This document shows positions 4,587-22,456 of a stretch of DNA of 64,000 nucleotides, one piece after another (within the stretch, counting starts at the first letter, position 1; each line of letters starts with the position of its first letter). The stretch comes from Eisenibacter elegans DSM 3317 (GTDB lineage: Bacteria; Bacteroidota; Bacteroidia; Cytophagales; Microscillaceae). The DNA is taken from NCBI RefSeq assembly GCF_000430505.1, contig NZ_AUMD01000021.1:128001-192000 (forward strand). Direction: 5' to 3'. The notes beneath the pieces were generated by a model. That model saw only the letters and a list, made by a program, of their open reading frames with translations. It searched no databases and was not told the origin of the DNA. Both the position numbers and the translations under genes were made by a program.

Positions 4587-5459
4587 TTATACTTTTGAGG
4601 ACTCTGTTGAATTGGCAGCGGCCTGTTCGCGCAGCGCCTTCAGTTTGACATATTTGAGGAAAGTAGCGTAGGCTTCCATCATACTCACCAAAAAACCATA
4701 GTAGCCATCCCAAAAACCTCGTTTCACCAAAAAACTTTTCCAAAAAGCCAACAGCGGGCTGAACAATATAAAAAAAAGCACATATTTTTTCTTGCCTCGT
4801 TGATGATAATCTTGGGCCGATAGGTCTGTAAACTTATTGATTTGGGAAAGGTGCTCTGTAATGGTTGCATAATTATAATGCAACAAGTGTTGTTTGAGCA
4901 GCAGGGATTTGGCTGGCGATGCCATCACGACAGCCTCGTGGACAAGGCCTTGCCAAGCACCTTTTTGTTTGTGCCAAAGACGTAGTTTGATTTCAGGATA
5001 CCAGTTGCCATAGCGAATCCAGTGGCCGCAGTAGTTATTTAGGCGGCGCATTCGATAAGCATCATAGTTGGCAAGCTGGGGCTTCAGGGCTAATATTTCG
5101 GCTTGTAAGGCTTCTGAGAGGCGCTCGTCAGCATCAAGTGACAGTACATAGTCGTGGGTTGCCAGTTGGTTGGCGTAGTTTTTACTAGCACTATAGCCCT
5201 CCCAAGCACGCTGAACCACAGTAGCGCCCATGGCCTTGGCCAGCGCAGGGGTATTATCAGTTGAGAAAGAATCAAGCACCAATATCTCGTCGGCTACCGG
5301 CAGCAGCGAAGCAATACAAGCTTCGATATGGCGAGCTTCATTGAAAGTAATGATAACAGCACTGATTTGGGACATAGCATACAATCCTAATACTGCAAAA
5401 GTAATTAATTTGCCCGATACCATCACGCTATCCCGCAAATCTGTTGGCGAATTTGCCAA
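4587..5459 (-). CDS. glycosyltransferase family 2
   Basis: ISAVIITFNEARHIEACIASL...ILVLDSFSTDNT is the GT2 DxD-type N-terminus, with C-terminal TM helices. The more likely start is the internal ATG at 5375 (MSQISAVIITFNE). Confidence 0.75.
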   Translation of the reverse strand: MANSPTDLRDSVMVSGKLITFAVLGLYAMSQISAVIITFNEARHIEACIASLLPVADEILVLDSFSTDNTPALAKAMGATVVQRAWEGYSASKNYANQLATHDYVLSLDADERLSEALQAEILALKPQLANYDAYRMRRLNNYCGHWIRYGNWYPEIKLRLWHKQKGAWQGLVHEAVVMASPAKSLLLKQHLLHYNYATITEHLSQINKFTDLSAQDYHQRGKKKYVLFFILFSPLLAFWKSFLVKRGFWDGYYGFLVSMMEAYATFLKYVKLKALREQAAANSTESSKV

Positions 5460-5529
5460 ACAATCCGTACTTTTGTTTAAACCTTCCCCCCGCTACTCTT
5501 TAAGTTTTTGTACCTACGCGACGCAATCC

Positions 5530-6132
5530 ATGGAAAAAAGCCCTCAAAAATACAGCGAACAAGAAAAGCATCTGATTTTCAATCAAGAATTCATCCCCTT
5601 GATTGATTCGGCATATAACTTTGCCTTCCGTCTGACACTCGACGAAGACGATGCCAAAGACCTTGTGCAAGATACATACCTCAAGGTTTTCCGCTTTATC
5701 GAATCCTTCCAGAAAGGAACTAATGCCAAAGCGTGGCTGTTTAGGATTTTGAAAAACAACTTCATCAATGATTTTCGCAAGAAAGTCAAAGAGCCAAATA
5801 AAACGGACTATCAAGAGGTTGAGAATTTCTATAATTCTGAAAACGCTGATACAGACCTCAACCTTACCACCGACTTGCGGGTAGAGATTATCCAAGGGAT
5901 GATAGGGGACGAGCTCGTAACAGCGCTCAACTCCTTAGCAGTAGATTTCAGAACAGTGATTATTTTATCAGATATTGAAGGGTTTACATACGAAGAGATG
6001 TCCAAAATCCTCAATATCCCCATCGGTACGGTGCGCTCTAGGCTACACCGCGCCCGCAATATTCTTAAAGAAAAACTAAGAACCTACGCCCAACAAATGG
6101 GGTATAAGACAGACAAACCTGAGCACAACTGA
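5530..6132 (+). CDS. ECF-type RNA polymerase sigma-70 factor
   Basis: Start set at the internal ATG 5530, in frame with the track ORF 5230..6132; the upstream extension overlaps the GT2 gene. The region-2 motif DAKDLVQDTYLKVFRFIESF...AWLFRILKNNFINDFRKK and a region-4 HTH (YEEMSKILNIPIGTVRSRLHRARNILKEKL) are present. Confidence 0.85.
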   Translation: MEKSPQKYSEQEKHLIFNQEFIPLIDSAYNFAFRLTLDEDDAKDLVQDTYLKVFRFIESFQKGTNAKAWLFRILKNNFINDFRKKVKEPNKTDYQEVENFYNSENADTDLNLTTDLRVEIIQGMIGDELVTALNSLAVDFRTVIILSDIEGFTYEEMSKILNIPIGTVRSRLHRARNILKEKLRTYAQQMGYKTDKPEHN

Positions 6133-6248
6133 GCAGCTTAGGCCCTACGGGGTGTTTTATACGGGGTTTATTCCGACAAATCATTACCAAACTATACACT
6201 CAATCCAGATGATGACTTGCTTGCGCCATACCAAACGTCTTTGATATT

Positions 6249-6512
6249 ATGAATTCAAAACAACATTCCTGTACCTGCCAAACCTGTTGTAGCGACTTGC
6301 TACCGTTGGTCATTGACCAAGAAGCCTCTGCCGAAGTAATGGAAATGTTCTTTGAGCACGTCGTCAACTGTGAGCATTGCCAGCGCTGCTACGAGGTAGA
6401 AAAGTGCTTGAAAGACAAAATTAAGAATGCCTGCCAAGGCAAATGTGTCCCTGAGGAATTGGTCAATACGATTCAATCTCAAATCAACTTAATGCTTACC
6501 AACACGAAATAG
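6249..6512 (+). CDS. zinc-finger (HC2-type) putative anti-sigma factor
   Basis: 87 aa, Cys/His-rich (CTCQTCC...HVVNCEHCQRCYEVEKC). Lies immediately downstream of the ECF sigma gene. Confidence 0.6.
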   Translation: MNSKQHSCTCQTCCSDLLPLVIDQEASAEVMEMFFEHVVNCEHCQRCYEVEKCLKDKIKNACQGKCVPEELVNTIQSQINLMLTNTK

Positions 6513-6519
6513 TCCTACG

Positions 6520-6557
6520 ACGGTGTAGTATTTGTGAGGATTACAATATTACACCGT
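6520..6557. promoter_or_regulatory. imperfect palindrome (ACGGTGTAGTAT ... ATATTACACCGT) directly upstream of porU; carries the ATATTACACC motif
   Basis: Seen directly: 12/14 complementary arms separated by about 14 bp, ending 22 bp before the porU ATG. The same 10-mer occurs twice upstream of the CDS at 22515. Confidence 0.35.
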
Positions 6558-6578
6558 TGTAGCTTCTAAGCTACCGCT

Positions 6579-9500
6579 ATGAGAGGAATGCTGCGCCTTG
6601 TGGCTTTGTGCGTATGGCTATTGATACAAACTGATGCTGTGCTTGCCCAAACTTTTGCCCCCAATTCTGTTTTATCTGAGGGGCAATGGCTCAAGATAGC
6701 TATTGTAGAAGAAGGGCTGTACAAAATTTCCGGTCAGTGGCTGCGCCAACAAGGTTGGACGCAAGGCATCTCCCCTTCACAACTACACCTCTATAGCGCC
6801 GGCAACGGGATGTTGCCCCAACGCAATAGTGCTCCCCGCATTGACGACCTTCAACCGGTAGCCATTTGGCTCAACAATCCACAAGCTCCTGCTTTTCAAG
6901 AGCAAGATTTTTTCTTGTTTTATGCCCAAGGCGCACACCAAGTGCGGATTGATACGGCTAATCAGCTTTTCTTGCCCGAAACCAACCTCTATGCGGATAC
7001 CAATTATTATTTCCTAACACTTCACGATCATTCGTCCTTGCAGGCGCGGCTTCAACCCCAAGCAGATTTGGGGGCTGCCAGCGTGGTATTTGAGCACTTT
7101 GATGACTACTGGCATCACGAGCAGGAGCGGGTATCTTTGCTGCTTTCAGGCAGGCAGTGGTATGGCGAGACTTTCAACGACAATACCTTACACACCTTCA
7201 ACATCAATACAGAAGGCTTATTGCCCAATAGCCCGCTTAAGCTCCGTATACAGGCAGTAGGCGGCGGTACCCAAAGCGCTACCTTGAGCATCCGCGCCAA
7301 CAATACCGACATTGGGCAGCTGGGGTTTCCGATCTTGCCCCAACAACGTTATGACCCCAAGGTACAGGAGGTATTACGAACTTTTGACTTTGCAGCCAAT
7401 ACCGTAGGCAATCCCGGCGCTATCCGGCTAGATGTGCGCTATAACCGCCAAGGTAACAATAATTTAGCCTATCTTGATTATCTGACACTACAAATACAGC
7501 GGCGCTTGGCTTATTATAATAGCCCAACGGTATTTCGTACTTTTGAGTCGTTGCAATACCCTACCGCAGCCTATCGTATTGCACAGACACAGGCCGGGGC
7601 AGTGGTCTGGGATATCAGCAACCCCTTGCAGCCCAAACTACAAAACAAGCGGTTTGAGAATGGGCAGACAGTTTTTGCCGTGGCTACCGCAGGGTTGTTG
7701 CGTTCCTTTTTGGTCTTTCAGGGAGAGAACTTCCCCCCCCCTATAGCAGCGCAACGCATCAATAACCAAAACTTGCACGCATCTCCTACCCCCAACTTGC
7801 TCATTATCACACACCCTAGCTTGCAGGCAGAAGCCGAACAACTGGCGGCTTTCCGACGCAATCACGACGGGCTTAATGTGCTGGTGGTCAATACGGTGCA
7901 AGTGTATCACGAATTTTCGGGCGGCAGACCTGACCTCACAGCGCTGCGTGACTTTATTCGAATGTTGTATACACGACAGCCCGAGCAACTACGCTATGTG
8001 CTGCTCTTTGGCGCAGCCTCTGTAGACTACAAAAACCGACTACCTAACAACAGCAATCTGGTGCCGATTTATGAGTCGAGGGAGTCGATACACCCTATTT
8101 TCAGCTATGCTTCGGATGACTATTTTGGCTTTCTGGAGCCGGAAGAGGGGGAATGGGTAGAAAATTTCGGAGGAGACCATACCCTAGAGGTGGGCATTGG
8201 CCGCCTACCTGCCCGCACGCCCACACAGGCCGCAGGGATGGTTCAAAAGCTGATTCGTTACAGCCAGAGTAATGCCCAACAATGGGGGAATTGGCGCAGC
8301 CTGCTGACTTTTGTGGCCGATGATGGCGATTTTAATATCCATCAACTAGATGCAGAACAACTCAGCCAACAAGTGCTCAACAATGCTCCGGCATACAAAC
8401 CATTGAAAAAATTTCTGGATGCGTTTCCCCGTGAGTTGGGTGGCGCAGGCGCAACCAGCCCTAAGCTGACAGAAAGCTTGTTGGAGCGTATCGACAAAGG
8501 CAGCCTTATTGTCAACTATACCGGCCACGGTGCCGAGACTGGATGGGCAGAGGAAGACATTATGAATGCCGGACACTGGCAAAATCTACGCAACACACGC
8601 CTGCCCTTGGTCGTAACGGCAACCTGTGAGTTTGGGCGCTACGATAACCCTACCCTTACCTCTGGCGCACAACTGGCCATACTCAACCCGTTGGGAGGTG
8701 CCATTGGGCTAATTACGACGACAAGACCAGTGTTTTCGAGCACTAATTTTGCCCTTAATCAAGCTTTTTACCAAGTTATTTTCCAAGCCAATGCTGCCGG
8801 TCAACCGCCCAGATTGGGAGAAGTAATGCGCCTGACCAAGAACGCCGCACTCAGAGGGGCGGTCAATCGGAACTTCTCGCTACTCGGAGACCCTTCTATG
8901 CGCCTCAACTATCCCAAACACCAAACAACATTGACCCAGATTTCGGCAGATACCCTACGGGCTTTGCAAGAAATTAGGCTGCAAGGGGAAGTACGCGACA
9001 CTCAAGGGCAACGACTCAGTACTTTCAACGGGCTTGCCCTAGTTACCCTACACGACAAACCGCTCACCCGCCGCACCCTAGGAGTGGGCGCTCCTGCGAT
9101 GAATTTTCAGGAGGTAGACAACCCTTTGTTTCGAGGACAAGTACGGGTGGTGAATGGACAGTATGAGGCAGCTTTCATTATCCCCCAAAATATCAATTAT
9201 CAATTGGGCGAGGGCAACTTGAGGGTATATGCTTATGACAGCCTTGCCGCTACCGATGCTCACGGAATCAACACCTTGGTGGTAGGAGGTAGCGCTCCCT
9301 TAGGAACCCCCGACCGTACACCGCCCACAATTCGGATGTGGATCAATGATGAAAGCTTTGTGTCTGGGCAGGCTATCGAGGGTGACCGCCCTGTGTTGGG
9401 CGCAGCCCTGAGCGACGAGAGCGGCATCAATATCTCTACTGCGGGGCTTAATAATGCCATCCGGGCACGCCTTCGCTATCCCGATGGGCGGGTTCGCGAA

Positions 9501-9983
9501 TGGATACTGAACGAGGAATATGTGGCCGATTTGGACACCTACCAATCGGGGCGACTCCGCTTTGCACTCCCCCGACTCGAAGCCGGTACCTATCAGCTCA
9601 GCCTTGAGGCTTGGGATGTGTGGAACAATAGCACGGAGGAGCAGCTGAGCTTTGTGGTCAATCCAATCTTGCGGATAGGCATCTCCTTGGCCGATATTTA
9701 TCCCAACCCAATGAGCGAAAATGCCACCTTGCGCATCCGACACGACCAAGCCGGCGAAGATCTCAGCCTAACCCTACAGTTGGTAGATAACCAAGGGCGC
9801 TTGGTACAGACTTGGGACTTGGAGCTTCTCGCTGCTCCAGAAACAATCCTGCTTCCTTGGGATGGGCGCGATAGCAAGGGAATGAAAATACACAACGGCA
9901 CATACATCTGCCGGGTATGGTTGCGTTCTAAGCTCAGACAGATTGAGGGCAGACAAAGTATCAAAATATTGGTTGCCCGATGA
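6579..9983 (+). CDS. porU: type IX secretion system sortase PorU (C25 peptidase family)
   Basis: 1134 aa with a signal peptide. The N-terminal motif SEGQWLKIAIVEEGLYKISGQWL is characteristic of PorU. The central region is gingipain-like (VLLFGAASVDYKN...DDYFGFLEPEEGEW). Size matches PorU and porV follows immediately. Confidence 0.8.
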   Translation: MRGMLRLVALCVWLLIQTDAVLAQTFAPNSVLSEGQWLKIAIVEEGLYKISGQWLRQQGWTQGISPSQLHLYSAGNGMLPQRNSAPRIDDLQPVAIWLNNPQAPAFQEQDFFLFYAQGAHQVRIDTANQLFLPETNLYADTNYYFLTLHDHSSLQARLQPQADLGAASVVFEHFDDYWHHEQERVSLLLSGRQWYGETFNDNTLHTFNINTEGLLPNSPLKLRIQAVGGGTQSATLSIRANNTDIGQLGFPILPQQRYDPKVQEVLRTFDFAANTVGNPGAIRLDVRYNRQGNNNLAYLDYLTLQIQRRLAYYNSPTVFRTFESLQYPTAAYRIAQTQAGAVVWDISNPLQPKLQNKRFENGQTVFAVATAGLLRSFLVFQGENFPPPIAAQRINNQNLHASPTPNLLIITHPSLQAEAEQLAAFRRNHDGLNVLVVNTVQVYHEFSGGRPDLTALRDFIRMLYTRQPEQLRYVLLFGAASVDYKNRLPNNSNLVPIYESRESIHPIFSYASDDYFGFLEPEEGEWVENFGGDHTLEVGIGRLPARTPTQAAGMVQKLIRYSQSNAQQWGNWRSLLTFVADDGDFNIHQLDAEQLSQQVLNNAPAYKPLKKFLDAFPRELGGAGATSPKLTESLLERIDKGSLIVNYTGHGAETGWAEEDIMNAGHWQNLRNTRLPLVVTATCEFGRYDNPTLTSGAQLAILNPLGGAIGLITTTRPVFSSTNFALNQAFYQVIFQANAAGQPPRLGEVMRLTKNAALRGAVNRNFSLLGDPSMRLNYPKHQTTLTQISADTLRALQEIRLQGEVRDTQGQRLSTFNGLALVTLHDKPLTRRTLGVGAPAMNFQEVDNPLFRGQVRVVNGQYEAAFIIPQNINYQLGEGNLRVYAYDSLAATDAHGINTLVVGGSAPLGTPDRTPPTIRMWINDESFVSGQAIEGDRPVLGAALSDESGINISTAGLNNAIRARLRYPDGRVREWILNEEYVADLDTYQSGRLRFALPRLEAGTYQLSLEAWDVWNNSTEEQLSFVVNPILRIGISLADIYPNPMSENATLRIRHDQAGEDLSLTLQLVDNQGRLVQTWDLELLAAPETILLPWDGRDSKGMKIHNGTYICRVWLRSKLRQIEGRQSIKILVAR

Positions 9984-10104
9984 CCTCGTCAAACGAACGC
10001 AAGGACTGGTAAAAACACCTCACTGAAATTAGTAAACAAGCGTACTATTTTGTGATAATTCTGTCTATCTTTGCGCGAAGCCTATTTGATAATATCCACT
10101 TGCA

Positions 10105-11274
10105 ATGATGTTGAAAAAAATTTCGCTATTGGCAGCCTTACTAATATGTAGTACGGGCGGCTTATTTGCTCAAAATCCAGCTTTGTTGGGACAAGATACT
10201 ACCCGTAGGGTTATCAACACCTCCCTTCCTTTTTTGAACATAGCACCTGATGCCCGCTCTGCCGGTATGGGCGATATGGGTGTGGCGATGTCGCCAGATG
10301 CCAATACTACCCACTGGAACGCATCTAAAGTAGCTTTTCTAAAGAATAAATTTGGATTTGCGTTCTCTTACAGCCCTTGGTTACAGCGGTTTGTAGGGGA
10401 TATGTCGCTTTCTTATTTGTCGGGCTATTACAAAATCGACGAGCTACAAGGGCTTTCTTCTTCGCTACGCTATTTCAACTTGGGGAATTTCAGCTTCACA
10501 GATGACATAGGCAATCCCATCCGTGATTTTACTCCACGCGAGTTTGCCTTTGATGTGTCTTATGCCCGCAAGCTGTCTGAGCGGCTTAGCGTTGGGGTAA
10601 CGGCACGCTACTTGCACTCCAACCTGACGGCAGACCTGATCCTGTCGAACCAAACCGAAACCCGTGCGGTCAACTCGGCTTCTTTTGACCTGTCGATGTT
10701 CTATCAATCAGAGGCACTGGACTTTATGGGGCTAAACTCTTCTTTTGCCTTTGGTGCCAATTTGTCTAACTTAGGCCCTAAGGTGTCTTATTCTAATGCC
10801 AATGAGGCTGATTTTATCCCAACCAATTTGCGGGTAGGTTTTGCTTCTACCACCTACCTCGACGATTACAACAAGTTTACCTTCGGGATGGACTTCAACA
10901 AGCTACTAGTGCCTACTCCGCCACAGATAGATGGCCAAGGCAATATCATCAGTGGCCGCAATCCGCGAGATGTGGGTGTAATTCAGGGGATGGCTTCGGG
11001 CTTGTTCCAAGCGCCTGGAGGCTTCCGCGAAAAGATGCAAGAAGTCAGCATTGCTACCGGGGTAGAGTATTGGTACAACGACCTGATAGCTGCGCGCATT
11101 GGTTATTTTTATGAAAACGAAAATAAAGGCAACCGCCGTTACTTCACTATCGGCCTAGGGATGCGCTACAACCTCTTTGGTTTGGATGTGGCCTATCTGC
11201 TGCCACAAAACCAAAACAACCCCTTGGCCGAAACTTTGCGCTTTACCCTGTTGTTTGACTTCAAGAACGACTAA
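10105..11274 (+). CDS. porV: type IX secretion system outer-membrane protein PorV (LptO), FadL-like beta-barrel
   Basis: 389 aa with a signal peptide (LFAQNPALLG). N-terminal LPFLNIAPDARSAGMGDMGVAMSPDANTTHWN and C-terminal LRFTLLFDFKND (aromatic-rich terminal strand) match PorV. A conserved porU-porV pair. Confidence 0.8.
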   Translation: MMLKKISLLAALLICSTGGLFAQNPALLGQDTTRRVINTSLPFLNIAPDARSAGMGDMGVAMSPDANTTHWNASKVAFLKNKFGFAFSYSPWLQRFVGDMSLSYLSGYYKIDELQGLSSSLRYFNLGNFSFTDDIGNPIRDFTPREFAFDVSYARKLSERLSVGVTARYLHSNLTADLILSNQTETRAVNSASFDLSMFYQSEALDFMGLNSSFAFGANLSNLGPKVSYSNANEADFIPTNLRVGFASTTYLDDYNKFTFGMDFNKLLVPTPPQIDGQGNIISGRNPRDVGVIQGMASGLFQAPGGFREKMQEVSIATGVEYWYNDLIAARIGYFYENENKGNRRYFTIGLGMRYNLFGLDVAYLLPQNQNNPLAETLRFTLLFDFKND

Positions 11275-11377
11275 ACGCAAAGCCTTCCATAAACACTGGC
11301 GATTGCCGGAAAGTCGGGTGGTGTTTGGGATATTCCCAAGCACTGCCCTTATTTTTTTATGCCAAATCAATGTCTCT

Positions 11378-12676
11378 ATGTTGCTAGACCGAAGTAAAGC
11401 TCCTGATTTTCAGGTAATAGAAAATATATCGCCCCAAGAGGCGGTAGCCGAAACCCTGCCCAATGGGCTGAAGTTACATCATCTGAGCGCTGGTGTGCAG
11501 CCGGTGTGTTATCTGGAGTTGATGTTTGAAGCTGGCACAACCCACGCACAGAGCACCATTATCCCGTCGTTGACTTTCAAAATGTTGGCCGAAGGCACAC
11601 AAAAACGCAGCGCGGGGCAAATTAGCGAATATATGGATAATCTGGGGGCTTTTTGGGAAGTACGCAACACAGCTACTTATAGTAGCTTGGTAGTGTATGC
11701 CCCTACCAAACACCTAGCCGCTGTGTTGACCTTGTTTTTGGAGTTGGTAGAGCAACCCAGCTTTCCTGAAGAAAGCCTACATACCCTCAAACAAGTAACC
11801 AAACAAGGGATTTTGAATGGCTTGCAGAAAACAGCCTATGTAGCCTCTAAGGGGATTAGAGAAGCAACTCTCGGGGCAACCCACCCAGTAGCACTGACGG
11901 CCACGCCGGAGGAGGTAGACCAAATAGGGATGGCCGAACTCGAAGCGTTTTATCAGACCCATATCCGAGGACAAGTATTTGAGGTATTTGTAGCGGGTGC
12001 TTTAGCCCCCGAGCATCTCCAGTACCTCCGCAACTGCTTGGGAGCCTTACACTTCGGCGCAGCCAAGCCCGTTACGCAGTTGCCATTGGCACAACCAACA
12101 ACAGACCAACAAATATTTTTGCCACACGAAGCCAAGCTACAAAGCTCCATCCGAGTAGGGCGGGTGATGTTCCCCAAAAACGACCCCAACTTCTTTAAAG
12201 TACTTATCACCAACGAGTTGTTTGGAGGGTACTTTGGCTCGCGATTGATGAAAAACATTCGAGAAGACAAAGGGTACACCTACGGTATCTCTTCCCAATT
12301 TAGCAGTATTCCCAAAGGGGAAAGCCTATGGATAATCGGCACGGATGTGAAGGCAGAGTTTGCTGCGCAGACACTGGCCGAAATCAACGGCGAAATCAGG
12401 AAACTGCAAGAAGAACCTGTAGCAACAGCCGAACTAGAGCTTGTGCGGAACTATATGCGTGGTGCTTTTGCCGGCAGTATCAACAGCCCTTTTGAGCTGA
12501 TGAACAAGTACAAAGGAATATACCTCTTTGGGTTGGATTATTCATTTTTCAAAAGCTATTTTGAAGCCATCGCGACTATCAGCCCGGACGAAATACAACA
12601 GGTAATGCAACAATACTTCGACCCAAAGATGTTGCACACCGTGGTAGCAGGCGCAGCATCACCTTTTCAGGACTGA
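11378..12676 (+). CDS. M16 (insulinase) family protein lacking the HxxEH zinc motif (non-peptidase homologue)
   Basis: Start set at ATG 11378, in frame with track ORF 11177..12676 whose 5' extension overlaps porV. Overall M16 fold signatures are present. At the position where an active M16 has HFLEHM, this protein has no His pair (LELMFEAGTTHAQSTIIPSLTFKMLAEGT). Confidence 0.65.
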   Translation: MLLDRSKAPDFQVIENISPQEAVAETLPNGLKLHHLSAGVQPVCYLELMFEAGTTHAQSTIIPSLTFKMLAEGTQKRSAGQISEYMDNLGAFWEVRNTATYSSLVVYAPTKHLAAVLTLFLELVEQPSFPEESLHTLKQVTKQGILNGLQKTAYVASKGIREATLGATHPVALTATPEEVDQIGMAELEAFYQTHIRGQVFEVFVAGALAPEHLQYLRNCLGALHFGAAKPVTQLPLAQPTTDQQIFLPHEAKLQSSIRVGRVMFPKNDPNFFKVLITNELFGGYFGSRLMKNIREDKGYTYGISSQFSSIPKGESLWIIGTDVKAEFAAQTLAEINGEIRKLQEEPVATAELELVRNYMRGAFAGSINSPFELMNKYKGIYLFGLDYSFFKSYFEAIATISPDEIQQVMQQYFDPKMLHTVVAGAASPFQD

Positions 12677-12774
12677 TACGCTTGGTGGTAAAAAAAATAA
12701 GAATTGTTTGTACCTTTGGTCAACAATAGCTCTTTTGCAAGAGCTTATCATTACACTTTTAAGTCTCCACGATT

Positions 12775-19194: not shown

Positions 19195-22008
19195 TTACTC
19201 AGGGTTTACGACCAGCTCTATTCGGTTATCTTGAAATACTTGTTTTGCCAAGGCTTGTAAGTCCTCTTTTTTCAGTTCGTCGATATAGCTCGGGTATGCC
19301 TTTAGGTCGCTCAGAGGGAGTTTGTGTTGGAACATATCGCTCAATGCATTTACCCAAAACTGGTTGCGTTGTTGGTTGGTTTCCCAATCGCGTTTTAGGG
19401 TTTCGGTAACCTTAGTCATATCTTTCTCGCTGATTTGGCCTTGTTGAATCTTAGCGATTTCGGCAAAAACAGCCTCTCGTAAGGTATTGACGTTCTCGGG
19501 CGCACAAGGGAAGCTGACCACTACCGTATACGATGGGTTGGGTGAGGCTGTTAGGCTGGCATTGGCTCCTGTACCATACACACCGCCAATCTCTTCGCGG
19601 AGTTGCTCGATAAGTTTGTTGGTGAGTAGCGAGCCTAGTGCGCTCAGTTTCAAGATATTTTGCGTGGAATAGGGCATACTCCCACCATAGGCGATACCGA
19701 CATAGCTTTTGGGATCACTTCCTTTTTGGAGGGTTTGGCTTAGCGGTTGGGTAGTAAAGCGCAGCCCTAGGTCTTTGGGAGCTTCTTTGCGGTTGCTTAC
19801 GGGCAGAGAGGCTAGGTACTGTACGCTCAATTCCCGCAGTTGGGTTTCATCTACATTACCAGCTACCACTACCGTCATCTTTGAAGCATCGCAGAGGCGG
19901 TTTTTGTAGACTTCAAAGGCTGTTTGTGCCTGAAGACTGTTGAGTATTTCGACCGAAGGCAACACGATAGGCGCACGGGGATGGTCTTGGTAAAAGAGCT
20001 TGTTCAGCTCTACTAGGAAGTAGAATTGCGTATTTGCGCCTAGATTTTGAACTATCCCCGCTGTTTTGTCACGCCAAGTATTGAATGCTTGTTCGCTATA
20101 GCGCGGGTTGGTAATGTATAGATGCAGGAGTTGTAAGGCCGTTTCGAGGTCAGTAGGATTGGTGCTGACATTAATCCCTTGATTGGTGGTGGTGATAAAA
20201 GGGGTTACACGGGCATTTTTACCACTGAGCATTTTTTGTAGGTCTGTATTATCAAATTCTGCTATGCCACCTTCGGCGACAATACTTGTAGCAAAAAAAG
20301 CGTGGCGTTGTTGCTCTTCGGTCAATACAGAGTAGCCGCCGGGGGTGTAGGCATATACCAATATTTCGTCATCTTTGAACTTGGTAGGCTTTACAATGAC
20401 TTCTACACCGTTAGAAAGCACCCAATGTTGTACACCTGGCAACTCTGATAGATTCTTGGTTTTCTTAATGCTTCCGGGCTTGGGTAGCGCCGTCATTAGC
20501 TTGTCTGCCAGTACTTTATCCTGATAAGGCTCCACACGGTTGATATCTACCTGTTTGATAATTTTTTGTATATCCTCTTCGGTAGGAATCTCAAGTTCTT
20601 CTTTTTCGGGAGCTGTAACGATAATCACACGGTTTTCTTTGCTAATCAGGCTTTGAGCCAAACTATTGAGCATAGATAATTCGAGGTTTGGCAGCTGTTC
20701 TTGGACGAAAGCATACATAAACTCTGCGCCCGGGATAGGTTGCTGAGTTAAGAAATGTTGTATATACTGATTGACCAATCGCGCTGATTCGGTGGTGTTG
20801 CGGTCTTTGTAGGCTTTTTCGTAGCGTTGAAGCACCACTTTCTGAGCACGGACAAGCTCTCCCTCCGTGAAGCCGTGGATACGGGCGCGTTTGGCCTCTT
20901 CGAGTAAAATCTTGAGCGCTTCGCGTACTTTACTTTCATTGGTAGCCGAAAACAACTGAAAAACACTGCTTTCGCGCCCTAGGCTACCATCTCCGGCAGA
21001 GGCAGATACTAGTGGTGTACCTTCTTTCTGCATCCATTCGCTGAGGCGGGCGTTGAGCATTTGTGAGACCAACTCCACGGCCAAGTCATTGCGTAGGTCG
21101 TCCAAGGTTTGTGTTGGTTTGAGCGGGTGTTTGTAGTACAGGCGCACTGTCGTAAAGTTAGCCTCCTTGTCTTTGGCTACTTTTACTAGTGTTTCGGCAT
21201 GGCCGGGTACTTCAAATACGGTACGTTCGCGTGGATTTTGTTTTGTAGGAATAGCGCCAAATTGCGCCTTTATTTGCGCCTCCATCTGGTCGAGGTCAAT
21301 ATCACCTACGGCCATAATGGCCATCAAATCGGGGCGATACCAATCGTTATAATATCTGCGGATGGCCTCGTGTTTGAAGTTTTTGATTAGTTCTACATCC
21401 CCGATGGGCAGTCTTTCAGGATAGCGCGAACCGTAATATAACACAGGCAAGTACTGGCGCATCATCCGCTCTTCGCCACCAAGGCGCGAACGCCATTCTT
21501 CTACAATCACGCCACGCTCTTTGTCTATTTCTTCGCCTTCAAAGCTGACAAGATGCGCCCAGTCTTCCAATATTTGCAGACCTTGTTGCACAATCTCAGG
21601 CTTGTCTGTGGGAATGGGGAGAATATAGACCGTTTCGTCGAAGCTGGTGTAGGCGTTGAGGTCTGCCCCAAAGGCTACCCCTACCGACTGTAAGTAGCTG
21701 ACAATTTCGTTTTTGGCGAAGTTCTTAGTACCGTTAAAACACATATGCTCTACAAAGTGTGCCAAGCCGAGCTGATCTTCGTCTTCGAGCAGAGAACCTG
21801 CATTGACGGCCAGACGTAGCTCGACCCGCTTCTCAGGGCGGCTGTTTTGGCGTAGATAATATTTCATCCCATTGGGGAGGATGCCGATGCGCAGTTGAGG
21901 ATCTAGGGGGATTGCTGTTTGATTTTGAGCTGATAAGCTGCTGGTAAGGCATAGCCACAAGCAAGCCAACAACCCCGCAATACGCCAAGGAGTAAGAGAC
22001 TTATTCAT
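19195..22008 (-). CDS. M16 family zinc metallopeptidase (insulinase-like, double-length)
   Basis: Active-site HFVEHMCFNGT (HxxEH) is present. The signal peptide MNKSLTPWRIAGLLACLWLCLTSSLSAQ suggests a start at ATG 22008; the track ORF begins at an upstream GTG at 22059. 937 aa from that start. Confidence 0.85.
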   Translation of the reverse strand: MNKSLTPWRIAGLLACLWLCLTSSLSAQNQTAIPLDPQLRIGILPNGMKYYLRQNSRPEKRVELRLAVNAGSLLEDEDQLGLAHFVEHMCFNGTKNFAKNEIVSYLQSVGVAFGADLNAYTSFDETVYILPIPTDKPEIVQQGLQILEDWAHLVSFEGEEIDKERGVIVEEWRSRLGGEERMMRQYLPVLYYGSRYPERLPIGDVELIKNFKHEAIRRYYNDWYRPDLMAIMAVGDIDLDQMEAQIKAQFGAIPTKQNPRERTVFEVPGHAETLVKVAKDKEANFTTVRLYYKHPLKPTQTLDDLRNDLAVELVSQMLNARLSEWMQKEGTPLVSASAGDGSLGRESSVFQLFSATNESKVREALKILLEEAKRARIHGFTEGELVRAQKVVLQRYEKAYKDRNTTESARLVNQYIQHFLTQQPIPGAEFMYAFVQEQLPNLELSMLNSLAQSLISKENRVIIVTAPEKEELEIPTEEDIQKIIKQVDINRVEPYQDKVLADKLMTALPKPGSIKKTKNLSELPGVQHWVLSNGVEVIVKPTKFKDDEILVYAYTPGGYSVLTEEQQRHAFFATSIVAEGGIAEFDNTDLQKMLSGKNARVTPFITTTNQGINVSTNPTDLETALQLLHLYITNPRYSEQAFNTWRDKTAGIVQNLGANTQFYFLVELNKLFYQDHPRAPIVLPSVEILNSLQAQTAFEVYKNRLCDASKMTVVVAGNVDETQLRELSVQYLASLPVSNRKEAPKDLGLRFTTQPLSQTLQKGSDPKSYVGIAYGGSMPYSTQNILKLSALGSLLTNKLIEQLREEIGGVYGTGANASLTASPNPSYTVVVSFPCAPENVNTLREAVFAEIAKIQQGQISEKDMTKVTETLKRDWETNQQRNQFWVNALSDMFQHKLPLSDLKAYPSYIDELKKEDLQALAKQVFQDNRIELVVNPE

Positions 22009-22456
22009 AAGAGGAATGGGTTTAAGTAATGGGTATTCCCAAATATAGAAACTTTTCACTAATATTTACTTGATTTGAGGACGCACTGTGTTTGATTTAG
22101 GGGTTATTCAATAAATAAATCAGGGATTATTCCACATCATTAGACATTTTTGGTCTTTGTTGTGGTTATGTTGACTCCCTCTTCTTGATGCATATTCAAC
22201 CGCAAAGGGCACAGCGCATACGCAAAGTAACATCCATATTTTAGGCTTTTTAGAAAAGGTCTAGTGGCGTGAGAAAAGATTTAATAACCTAGGATTGGGT
22301 ATAGAGATTCTCTCCCCTCCGAGGTGAATTAGGGGCTTAAATCCTGAAAAATTGCTTTAGGGGCAGGGTTTGTAAACTTATTGCAAAGCATTTGTGCCAA
22401 AGTGTTTTCTTAAAAAAACCTTACTTTACCTATAACCAATACCTAACTTTGACGCA

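Follow-up and report, generated by a model that had tools for sequence, protein, structure and literature searches.

The 64-kb stretch of Eisenibacter elegans DNA (Cytophagales, Microscillaceae) analysed here, which we call the window, carries five co-oriented genes on its + strand between positions 5530 and 12676. They encode an extracytoplasmic function (ECF) sigma factor, a small zinc-finger anti-sigma factor, PorU and PorV of the T9SS (type IX secretion system), and an M16 peptidase homologue without zinc ligands. An initial annotation had given this gene order and these identities, and had proposed that porU and porV are controlled locally by the sigma/anti-sigma pair as their dedicated regulator, in response to redox state or metals. 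The order and the identities were confirmed for all five genes, at the positions listed here; the proposed control found no support in other genomes, as described below.

5530..6132, + strand: ECF sigma factor, SigH/SigR-like, by its distribution a Cytophagales core gene (Pfam, NCBIfam and PDB matches)
6249..6512, + strand: RsrA-like small soluble zinc-finger anti-sigma factor of the zinc-associated anti-sigma (ZAS) type (HxxxCxxC, RsrA model, alignment to 5frf)
6579..9983, + strand: porU, T9SS C-terminal signal peptidase/sortase (NF033707, Peptidase_C25)
10105..11274, + strand: porV, T9SS outer-membrane shuttle (NF033710, Pfam PorV)
11375..12676, + strand: non-catalytic M16B subunit homologue of a porV-associated subfamily (M16_C, 3amj_B; no HxxEH)

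The sigma factor (200 aa) consists of regions 2 and 4 only (Pfam Sigma70_r2, residues 28-85, 55.5 bits; Sigma70_r4_2, residues 128-177, 56.3 bits) and, with 85.9 bits against the NCBIfam superfamily model sigma70-ECF (cut-off 42.9), belongs to the ECF (group IV) sigma factors. Its best NCBIfam match was TIGR02947 (SigH_actino), with a score of 167.4 bits that lies below the equivalog cut-off of 251.55 and places the protein outside that equivalog; the closest solved structure was that of M. tuberculosis SigH (full length, E 1e-39). A cognate anti-sigma gene is adjacent and co-oriented, a ZAS-type open reading frame (ORF) of 87 codons lying 116 nt downstream of the sigma gene. Its product contains 10 Cys, has no hydrophobic segment and is predicted to be cytoplasmic. 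This protein, short and divergent, missed the Pfam zf-HC2 cut-off marginally (20.1 bits against 22.2) and matched the NCBIfam RsrA model TIGR03988 with an E value of 8.8e-8 at 32.1 bits, below the cut-off of 62.5. Its alignment with RsrA (5frf) ran over the full length and put H37, C41 and C44 of its H37-x3-C41-x2-C44 motif in register and its N-terminal cysteines C8/C10/C13/C14 at the position of RsrA C11, so that the ZAS motif is present; Y48, E51, K55, C62 and P68 are also common to both proteins. The model match and this alignment together identified it as RsrA-like, and it likely binds zinc, as judged from these ligands, which make up a complete Cys-His-Cys-Cys zinc site. The residues flanking the cysteines that are reported to set the redox sensitivity of RsrA, E39, E40, L45 and E46 (PMC3177212), are not conserved and read V39, N40, Q45 and R46 in Eisenibacter; with moderate support, we infer by analogy that the protein may sense the thiol redox state.

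The pair resembles the ECF12-type switches that respond to thiol-oxidative stress, SigR-RsrA of Streptomyces coelicolor and SigH-RshA of M. tuberculosis, in having a two-domain, SigH-matching sigma factor and a small, soluble anti-sigma factor, encoded next to it, with the zinc motif in the RsrA register. It differs from them in scoring below the equivalog cut-offs (sigma 167 vs 251; anti-sigma 32 vs 62.5 bits), in belonging to a host of the phylum Bacteroidota rather than Actinobacteria, in lacking the cysteine-flanking redox determinants, and in a sigma gene that has a sigma-A-type box without a recognisable SigR-type autoregulatory promoter upstream. By this comparison the Eisenibacter pair would work like SigR-RsrA or SigH-RshA but is no curated member of those equivalogs.

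The T9SS genes were assigned with wide margins. PorU scored 1205 bits against NF033707 (cut-off 420) and 348 bits against Peptidase_C25, and an N-terminal signal peptide is visible in its sequence; PorV scored 474.8 bits against NF033710 (cut-off 250) and 226 bits against Pfam PorV. The same two genes stand in the same order in Porphyromonas gingivalis (PG0026/PG0027) and Cytophaga hutchinsonii (CHU_3237/CHU_3238), and in the latter they are followed, as in Eisenibacter, by a 'zinc protease' gene, CHU_3239 (PMC8564354). Relative to these known pairs only the upstream neighbour differs in Eisenibacter, and that neighbour varies across genomes.

Neighbourhoods of the pair and of porU in other genomes

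For the sigma side we sampled one genome per species and obtained 80 further loci with 10-kb flanks; sequence past the anti-sigma ORF extended for at least 700 nt in 78 of the 80 and for at least 3.5 kb in 68. The sigma orthologues in these 80 other Cytophagales species were 70-79% identical to the Eisenibacter protein, and a small ORF (78-119 aa) directly followed the sigma gene in every one of them. PorU or PorV was encoded downstream of the pair at none (0/80). The sole sigma locus to hold porU-porV, L046, has them 7.5 kb upstream of sigma. Instead, gmk followed the anti-sigma gene in 57/80 loci and nadD came next in 50/80, often with gaps of just 1-15 nt (by nadD we mean a cytidylyltransferase gene matching Pfam CTP_transf_like, which we read as NadD). 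The initial annotation had itself named different neighbours in relatives as an observation that would speak against its proposal, and such neighbours, mostly gmk-nadD, were found in 80/80 Cytophagales species. These distributions indicate that the SigH/RsrA-like pair is a near-universal and very highly conserved core module of the Cytophagales, normally linked to gmk-nadD.

The nearest relatives locate the point at which Eisenibacter departs from this arrangement. In Microscilla sp. and marine bacterium AO1-C the synteny to the left, GT9-GT9-GT2 followed by sigma and anti-sigma, is the same as in Eisenibacter; to the right of the anti-sigma gene these genomes, unlike Eisenibacter, have gmk-nadD, and neither gmk nor nadD is present in the 64-kb window. 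C. hutchinsonii CHU_0600 has been listed as an RsrA homologue (Jung et al. 2011, PMC3177212), and the porU and porV genes of that organism (PMC8564354) are numbered far from it. A literature search on CHU_0600 found no functional study.

The porU side gave the same answer. A SigH-like pair stood upstream of porU at none of 21 distinct porU loci (0/21). The genes preceding porU elsewhere were dnaA, a divergent BlaI/BlaR pair (Microscilla marina), MlaD (Raineya), a short-chain dehydrogenase/reductase gene (Hugenholtzia) and an ORF of unknown function (Spirosoma). In the metagenome-assembled genome (MAG) with the closest PorU (46% identity), porU lay on contig ...055 and the sigma pair on contig ...026. 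Conservation also differed between the two sides, the closest match of the sigma factor (79% identity) being far above that of PorU (46%). The arrangement with the pair adjoining porU was recovered by exact-protein look-up in three further public contigs, all from the same organism. The adjacency is thus a fact of this genome and not a statistical signal; conservation is what fails. Conserved linkage of regulator and target, which we used as the test for a dedicated regulator, was found neither among the sigma loci (0/80) nor among the porU loci (0/21), and because neither set shares the linkage we place the origin of the adjacency in the Eisenibacter lineage.

Several further observations were made on these loci. 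Many metagenomic contigs shared a block MBL-PssA-(PurS)-porU-porV-M16, in which the genes before porU encode an MBL-fold (metallo-beta-lactamase) hydrolase and a CDP-alcohol phosphatidyltransferase, plus or minus PurS (L100-L102, L105, L108, L112, L120, L123, L137, L150 and L158). The sole porU locus with any sigma gene nearby was on a metagenomic contig, L099: the gene, truncated at the end of the contig, stands roughly 2 kb upstream of porU, its product is an ECF sigma unrelated to that of the window (34% identity), and genes for a 243-aa unknown protein and a 365-aa outer-membrane beta-barrel protein follow it (region 100-2164).

The anti-sigma family itself proved variable. A word-indexed homologue search with the 87-aa query matched only the query itself, and orthologues were recovered by their position after sigma instead of by sequence search. 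Among the 81 proteins so assembled (L004-L083 and the window), HxxxCxxC was kept in 20, K, N or Q replaced His (K/N/QxxxCxxC) in 42, and both motif cysteines were lost in 17, while the partner sigma factors stayed 70-79% identical. The alignment suggests that the ZAS motif is eroding within a single orthologous family, the zinc/redox motif having been lost repeatedly.

A second ECF system lies at the left edge of the window, where a 423-aa anti-sigma-like protein is encoded at 325-1596 (+; NF052375, E 1.8e-7, below the cut-off). The 172-aa ECF sigma gene before it is clipped by the window start and is whole in L001 (3557-4075).

Transcription signals around the spacer

The candidate signals found in and around the five genes are listed below. 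Sigma-A promoters were sought through the Bacteroidetes -7 box consensus TAnnTTTG (PMC9723704); this and the ECF patterns were scanned by script, an E. coli-type promoter scan being uninformative for Bacteroidota.

5468..5475, + strand: sigma-A type -7 box TACTTTTG, exact TAnnTTTG, 55 bp before the sigma ATG
6515..6562, + strand: strong stem-loop with 18-nt arms and a 12-nt loop (inverted repeat; RNA fold)
10066..10073, + strand: sigma-A type -7 box TATCTTTG, exact TAnnTTTG, 32 bp before the porV ATG
11316..11358, + strand: canonical intrinsic terminator, a 15-pair stem with 8 GC pairs at 11316-11348, then TTATTTTTTT (terminator scan)

Exact TAnnTTTG boxes preceded the sigma gene, porV and also fabI (at 12711); none preceded the anti-sigma gene, porU or the M16 gene. 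Boxes of this type were also found just upstream of the orthologous sigma gene starts in relatives. Because sigma-A -7 boxes precede the sigma gene both here and in its orthologues, they suggest that the gene is transcribed constitutively and that its product would be controlled post-translationally by the anti-sigma factor.

The initial annotation had expected an ECF-type -35/-10 pair in the 66-bp spacer between the anti-sigma gene and porU (6513-6578), and our scans gave no sign of one: neither the SigH-type consensus GGAAY-N16-19-GTT/CGTT nor the generic ECF consensus AAC-N15-18-CGT matched in 6133-6578, which includes the spacer, and no ECF consensus occurred within 200 nt before porU. Over the whole window the SigH-type consensus matched twice (26261 and 63691), no more than chance. 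Nor did an autoregulatory promoter of the form GGAAY-N18-(C)GTT appear for the sigma operon in the regions scanned, 5300-5530 and 6133-6578.

The spacer is mostly filled by the hairpin, whose predicted fold of -29.9 kcal/mol (z = -5.6) was matched in stability by none of 200 shuffled sequences. It stands exactly at the synteny breakpoint and is a candidate terminator, attenuator, protein-binding site or rearrangement scar. The idea that it is a repeated (REP-like, repetitive extragenic palindromic) element was rejected, since weak matches elsewhere in the window are not inverted repeats. A scan against Rfam returned no RNA family anywhere in the window. Of the canonical terminators, one separates porV from the M16 gene in Eisenibacter, although in many other genomes the two lie no more than 24-60 bp apart, and a second follows fabI (terminator scan).

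In relatives, two patterns were seen near the start of the anti-sigma gene. Orthologues from Cyclobacteriaceae and Leadbetterella carry GGAAC-N18-CGTTC inside the sigma gene, within its last ~60 nt, in a segment coding for R-N-L-L-K-x-K-L-R-S and invariant there while neighbouring synonymous sites vary (L015, L017, L019-L025, L028, L030, L031, L033, L037, L039, L046, L049-L052, L055, L059, L061 and L075). The motif fits what we take to be the SigH/SigR promoter consensus and could, to judge from its placement and invariance, be an internal sigma-dependent feedback promoter for the anti-sigma gene; it is absent from Eisenibacter (5300-6620) and from other Microscillaceae. The generic pattern AAC-N15-18-CGT was enriched before the anti-sigma gene (17/81 against 6.2 in shuffles) and is likewise absent in Eisenibacter. 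It was rejected as evidence for an ECF promoter across relatives, since 14 of the 17 matches lie within the sigma coding sequence, where coding constraint is inseparable from promoter function.

The M16 homologue after porV

The fifth gene encodes a protein that matched Peptidase_M16_C with 84.5 bits and the M16 N-domain weakly, with 22.8 bits. The position of the HxxEH motif reads S-L-T-F-K (IPSLTFKMLAEGT), the zinc ligands are absent, and the protein does not qualify as an active metallopeptidase; its best PDB match, over residues 27-429, was 3amj_B, annotated 'zinc peptidase inactive subunit' (E 1.9e-28). No signal peptide was found in it, and it is predicted to be cytoplasmic. It shares with the inactive subunit of the heterodimeric M16B peptidase of Sphingomonas sp. 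A1 (3amj chain B) a two-domain M16 fold without HxxEH. The classical inactive M16B subunits are encoded directly after an active HxxEH partner, whereas the subfamily linked to porV has no adjacent partner.

This difference was seen throughout a larger set. We fetched 80 metagenomic relatives and aligned 83 homologues, in all of which (83/83) HxxEH was absent and which split cleanly into two sequence clusters. One cluster holds the more distant metagenomic homologues in the classical arrangement, all 27 copies directly following an active HLFEH subunit of about 412 aa. The other holds all 41 porV-linked copies, about 8 in other contexts and 3 in unknown context, and includes the proteins of Eisenibacter, Microscilla marina and Spirosoma taeanense (loci L085 and L088-L168 were examined). 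No active M16 partner adjoins the porV-linked members, and the gap from porV to the M16 gene is often just 24-60 bp. The linkage was not found in Raineya, in a Microscillaceae-like MAG or in Hugenholtzia. The suggestion that the M16 gene is more than a chance neighbour of porV was thus upheld by synteny in 41 loci from several lineages, to which C. hutchinsonii can be added, where CHU_3239 after porV is annotated as a zinc protease (PMC8564354). Literature searches on M16 proteins with T9SS or porV found no functional study. From clustering and synteny, the zinc-less protein appears to be a conserved companion of porV, standing third in the porU-porV cluster of many Bacteroidota, and looks like an orphan subfamily of inactive subunits tied to porU-porV.

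One other M16 protein is encoded in the window (19195-22059, - strand), a fused, double-length protein of 954 aa with HFVEH intact and an N-terminal hydrophobic segment. The active partners of inactive subunits, at ~412 aa, are of another type.

Origin of the adjacency

We conclude that the locus probably consists of two independently conserved modules that a rearrangement in the Eisenibacter lineage has juxtaposed, and that the sigma/anti-sigma pair is most likely not a dedicated regulator of porU and porV. The first module would be a stress switch that belongs to the Cytophagales core, in which a small cytoplasmic RsrA-like anti-sigma factor keeps a SigH/SigR-like ECF sigma factor silent and frees it, by analogy with RsrA and RshA, upon thiol oxidation or zinc loss; its sigma gene would be transcribed from a housekeeping sigma-A promoter, and in relatives gmk and nadD follow the pair and are probably co-transcribed with it. 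The second module would be the attachment-complex pair porU-porV of the T9SS, with an orphan inactive M16B subunit as its conserved companion. The breakpoint between them would be the 66-bp spacer with its strong hairpin. For porV there are a putative sigma-A-type promoter of its own and a canonical terminator, and any coupling to the sigma factor would be incidental read-through. 

Several observations weigh against so complete a separation, and they can be read in two ways. One is that the adjacent sigma factor itself drives porU (and porV), in a redox- or metal-responsive manner through the zinc-finger anti-sigma factor. The genes are adjacent and co-oriented, the ZAS motif of the anti-sigma factor is intact, and there are precedents: an ECF-type promoter (SM6, with a CGT -10 box) has been mapped at porU of Flavobacterium psychrophilum, where porU and thiol-specific antioxidant enzymes are induced together (PMC9723704), and the porU and porV mRNAs of P. 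gingivalis depend on the PorXY-SigP pathway, in which an ECF sigma factor is implicated in the expression of T9SS genes (PMC7712824). CGTT, the core of a SigH-type -10 element, occurs at 6556-6559, 20 nt before the porU ATG and inside the 3' arm of the hairpin. Of 13 non-redundant loci, 8 (the window, L086, L101, L105, L110, L135, L158 and L168) have the same tetranucleotide 80 nt or less upstream of porU, against 3.0 expected; 2 of 1000 shuffles reached 8, and the tetranucleotide recalls the box mapped in F. psychrophilum. Direct control is nevertheless very unlikely in our judgement. The adjacency is unique to the Eisenibacter lineage; the CGTT before porU has no -35 element at a workable distance, the best candidate, GGATT, being just 13 nt away where about 18 are needed, and no consistent -35 partner could be derived for the CGTT boxes across porU genes. 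The candidate family motif GGAAC-N18-CGTTC is missing from the locus, the redox residues of RsrA are replaced, and porV has a sigma-A-type box of its own. The P. gingivalis precedent also differs in kind, since SigP owes its activation to the response regulator PorX and not to release from a ZAS anti-sigma factor and is itself unlinked to porU; unlike it, the Eisenibacter sigma factor is SigH-like by its best family matches and its orthologues are conserved beside gmk-nadD, not beside T9SS genes. ECF control of porU in general is plausible, and nothing assigns such control to this sigma factor.

The other way is that porU lost its own promoter after the rearrangement and now owes most of its transcription to read-through out of the sigma/anti-sigma unit, with the hairpin acting as a partial attenuator or as an element of RNA processing or stability. 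The level of PorU would then track the activity of the sigma operon promoter, with no need for the sigma factor to recognise a promoter at porU. No exact TAnnTTTG box lies in the 200 nt upstream of porU, the spacer is short, and its hairpin is without a T tract, unlike the terminators after porV and fabI; since a clear promoter is lacking at porU and the spacer hairpin departs from the canonical terminator form, read-through from the pair into porU may occur. In relatives, moreover, linkage of the pair to the genes downstream is tight, the spacing of sigma, anti-sigma, gmk and nadD fitting operons that extend past the anti-sigma gene, so that the ancestral habit is transcription together with the genes that come next. 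Against this, a -7-like box with one mismatch, TATTTGTG, stands at 6529 within the hairpin, and Bacteroidota promoters tolerate variants such as SM5, TAnnTTGY (PMC9723704); a hairpin of such stability directly after the stop codon may itself terminate or pause transcription; and promoters inside the anti-sigma coding region were scanned for by consensus only. We regard this passive coupling as an unlikely account of porU transcription, and favour the juxtaposition of two modules with no more than incidental read-through. For the M16 gene alone there is the possibility, which we hold doubtful though somewhat less so than passive coupling, that the zinc-less protein serves the PorU/PorV module as an accessory factor and that gene order reflects function rather than inertia; it might be a cytoplasmic chaperone-like or peptide-binding partner, or a protease subunit acting on T9SS-related substrates. 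The separate clustering of the 41 porV-linked proteins, apart from the 27 copies paired with active partners, the short gaps to porV, and the recurrence of the linkage in Microscilla marina, Spirosoma taeanense and C. hutchinsonii speak for such a role, but the protein is predicted to be cytoplasmic while the outer membrane is where PorU and PorV act, a terminator splits its gene from porV in Eisenibacter, and both the genomes without the linkage and the silence of the literature tell against it. The protein is unlikely to take a direct part in the attachment complex of the outer membrane, because it has no signal peptide and a terminator precedes its gene in Eisenibacter. That both departures hold at once, the porV-linked M16B protein being a so far unrecognised cytoplasmic component with a functional tie to the T9SS attachment module and a recent fusion of porU to the SigH-RsrA-like unit adding thiol-stress-linked read-through of the sortase gene, seems to us less probable than either taken singly.

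A dedicated, locally encoded redox switch for the T9SS sortase would have been new, and the comparative evidence argues against it. Genes of known kinds stand here in an ordinary juxtaposition, and the locus should not serve as a lead for T9SS regulation. If read-through from the sigma operon did place the sortase gene under thiol-stress-linked transcription, the locus would illustrate how a rearrangement can rewire regulation in nature. Two modest by-products concern the family more widely: an orphan inactive M16B protein after porV, which the literature mentions solely as a neighbour annotated in C. hutchinsonii, and a conserved SigH/RsrA-like module of the Cytophagales, linked to gmk-nadD, in which the motif of the anti-sigma factor appears to have been lost repeatedly.

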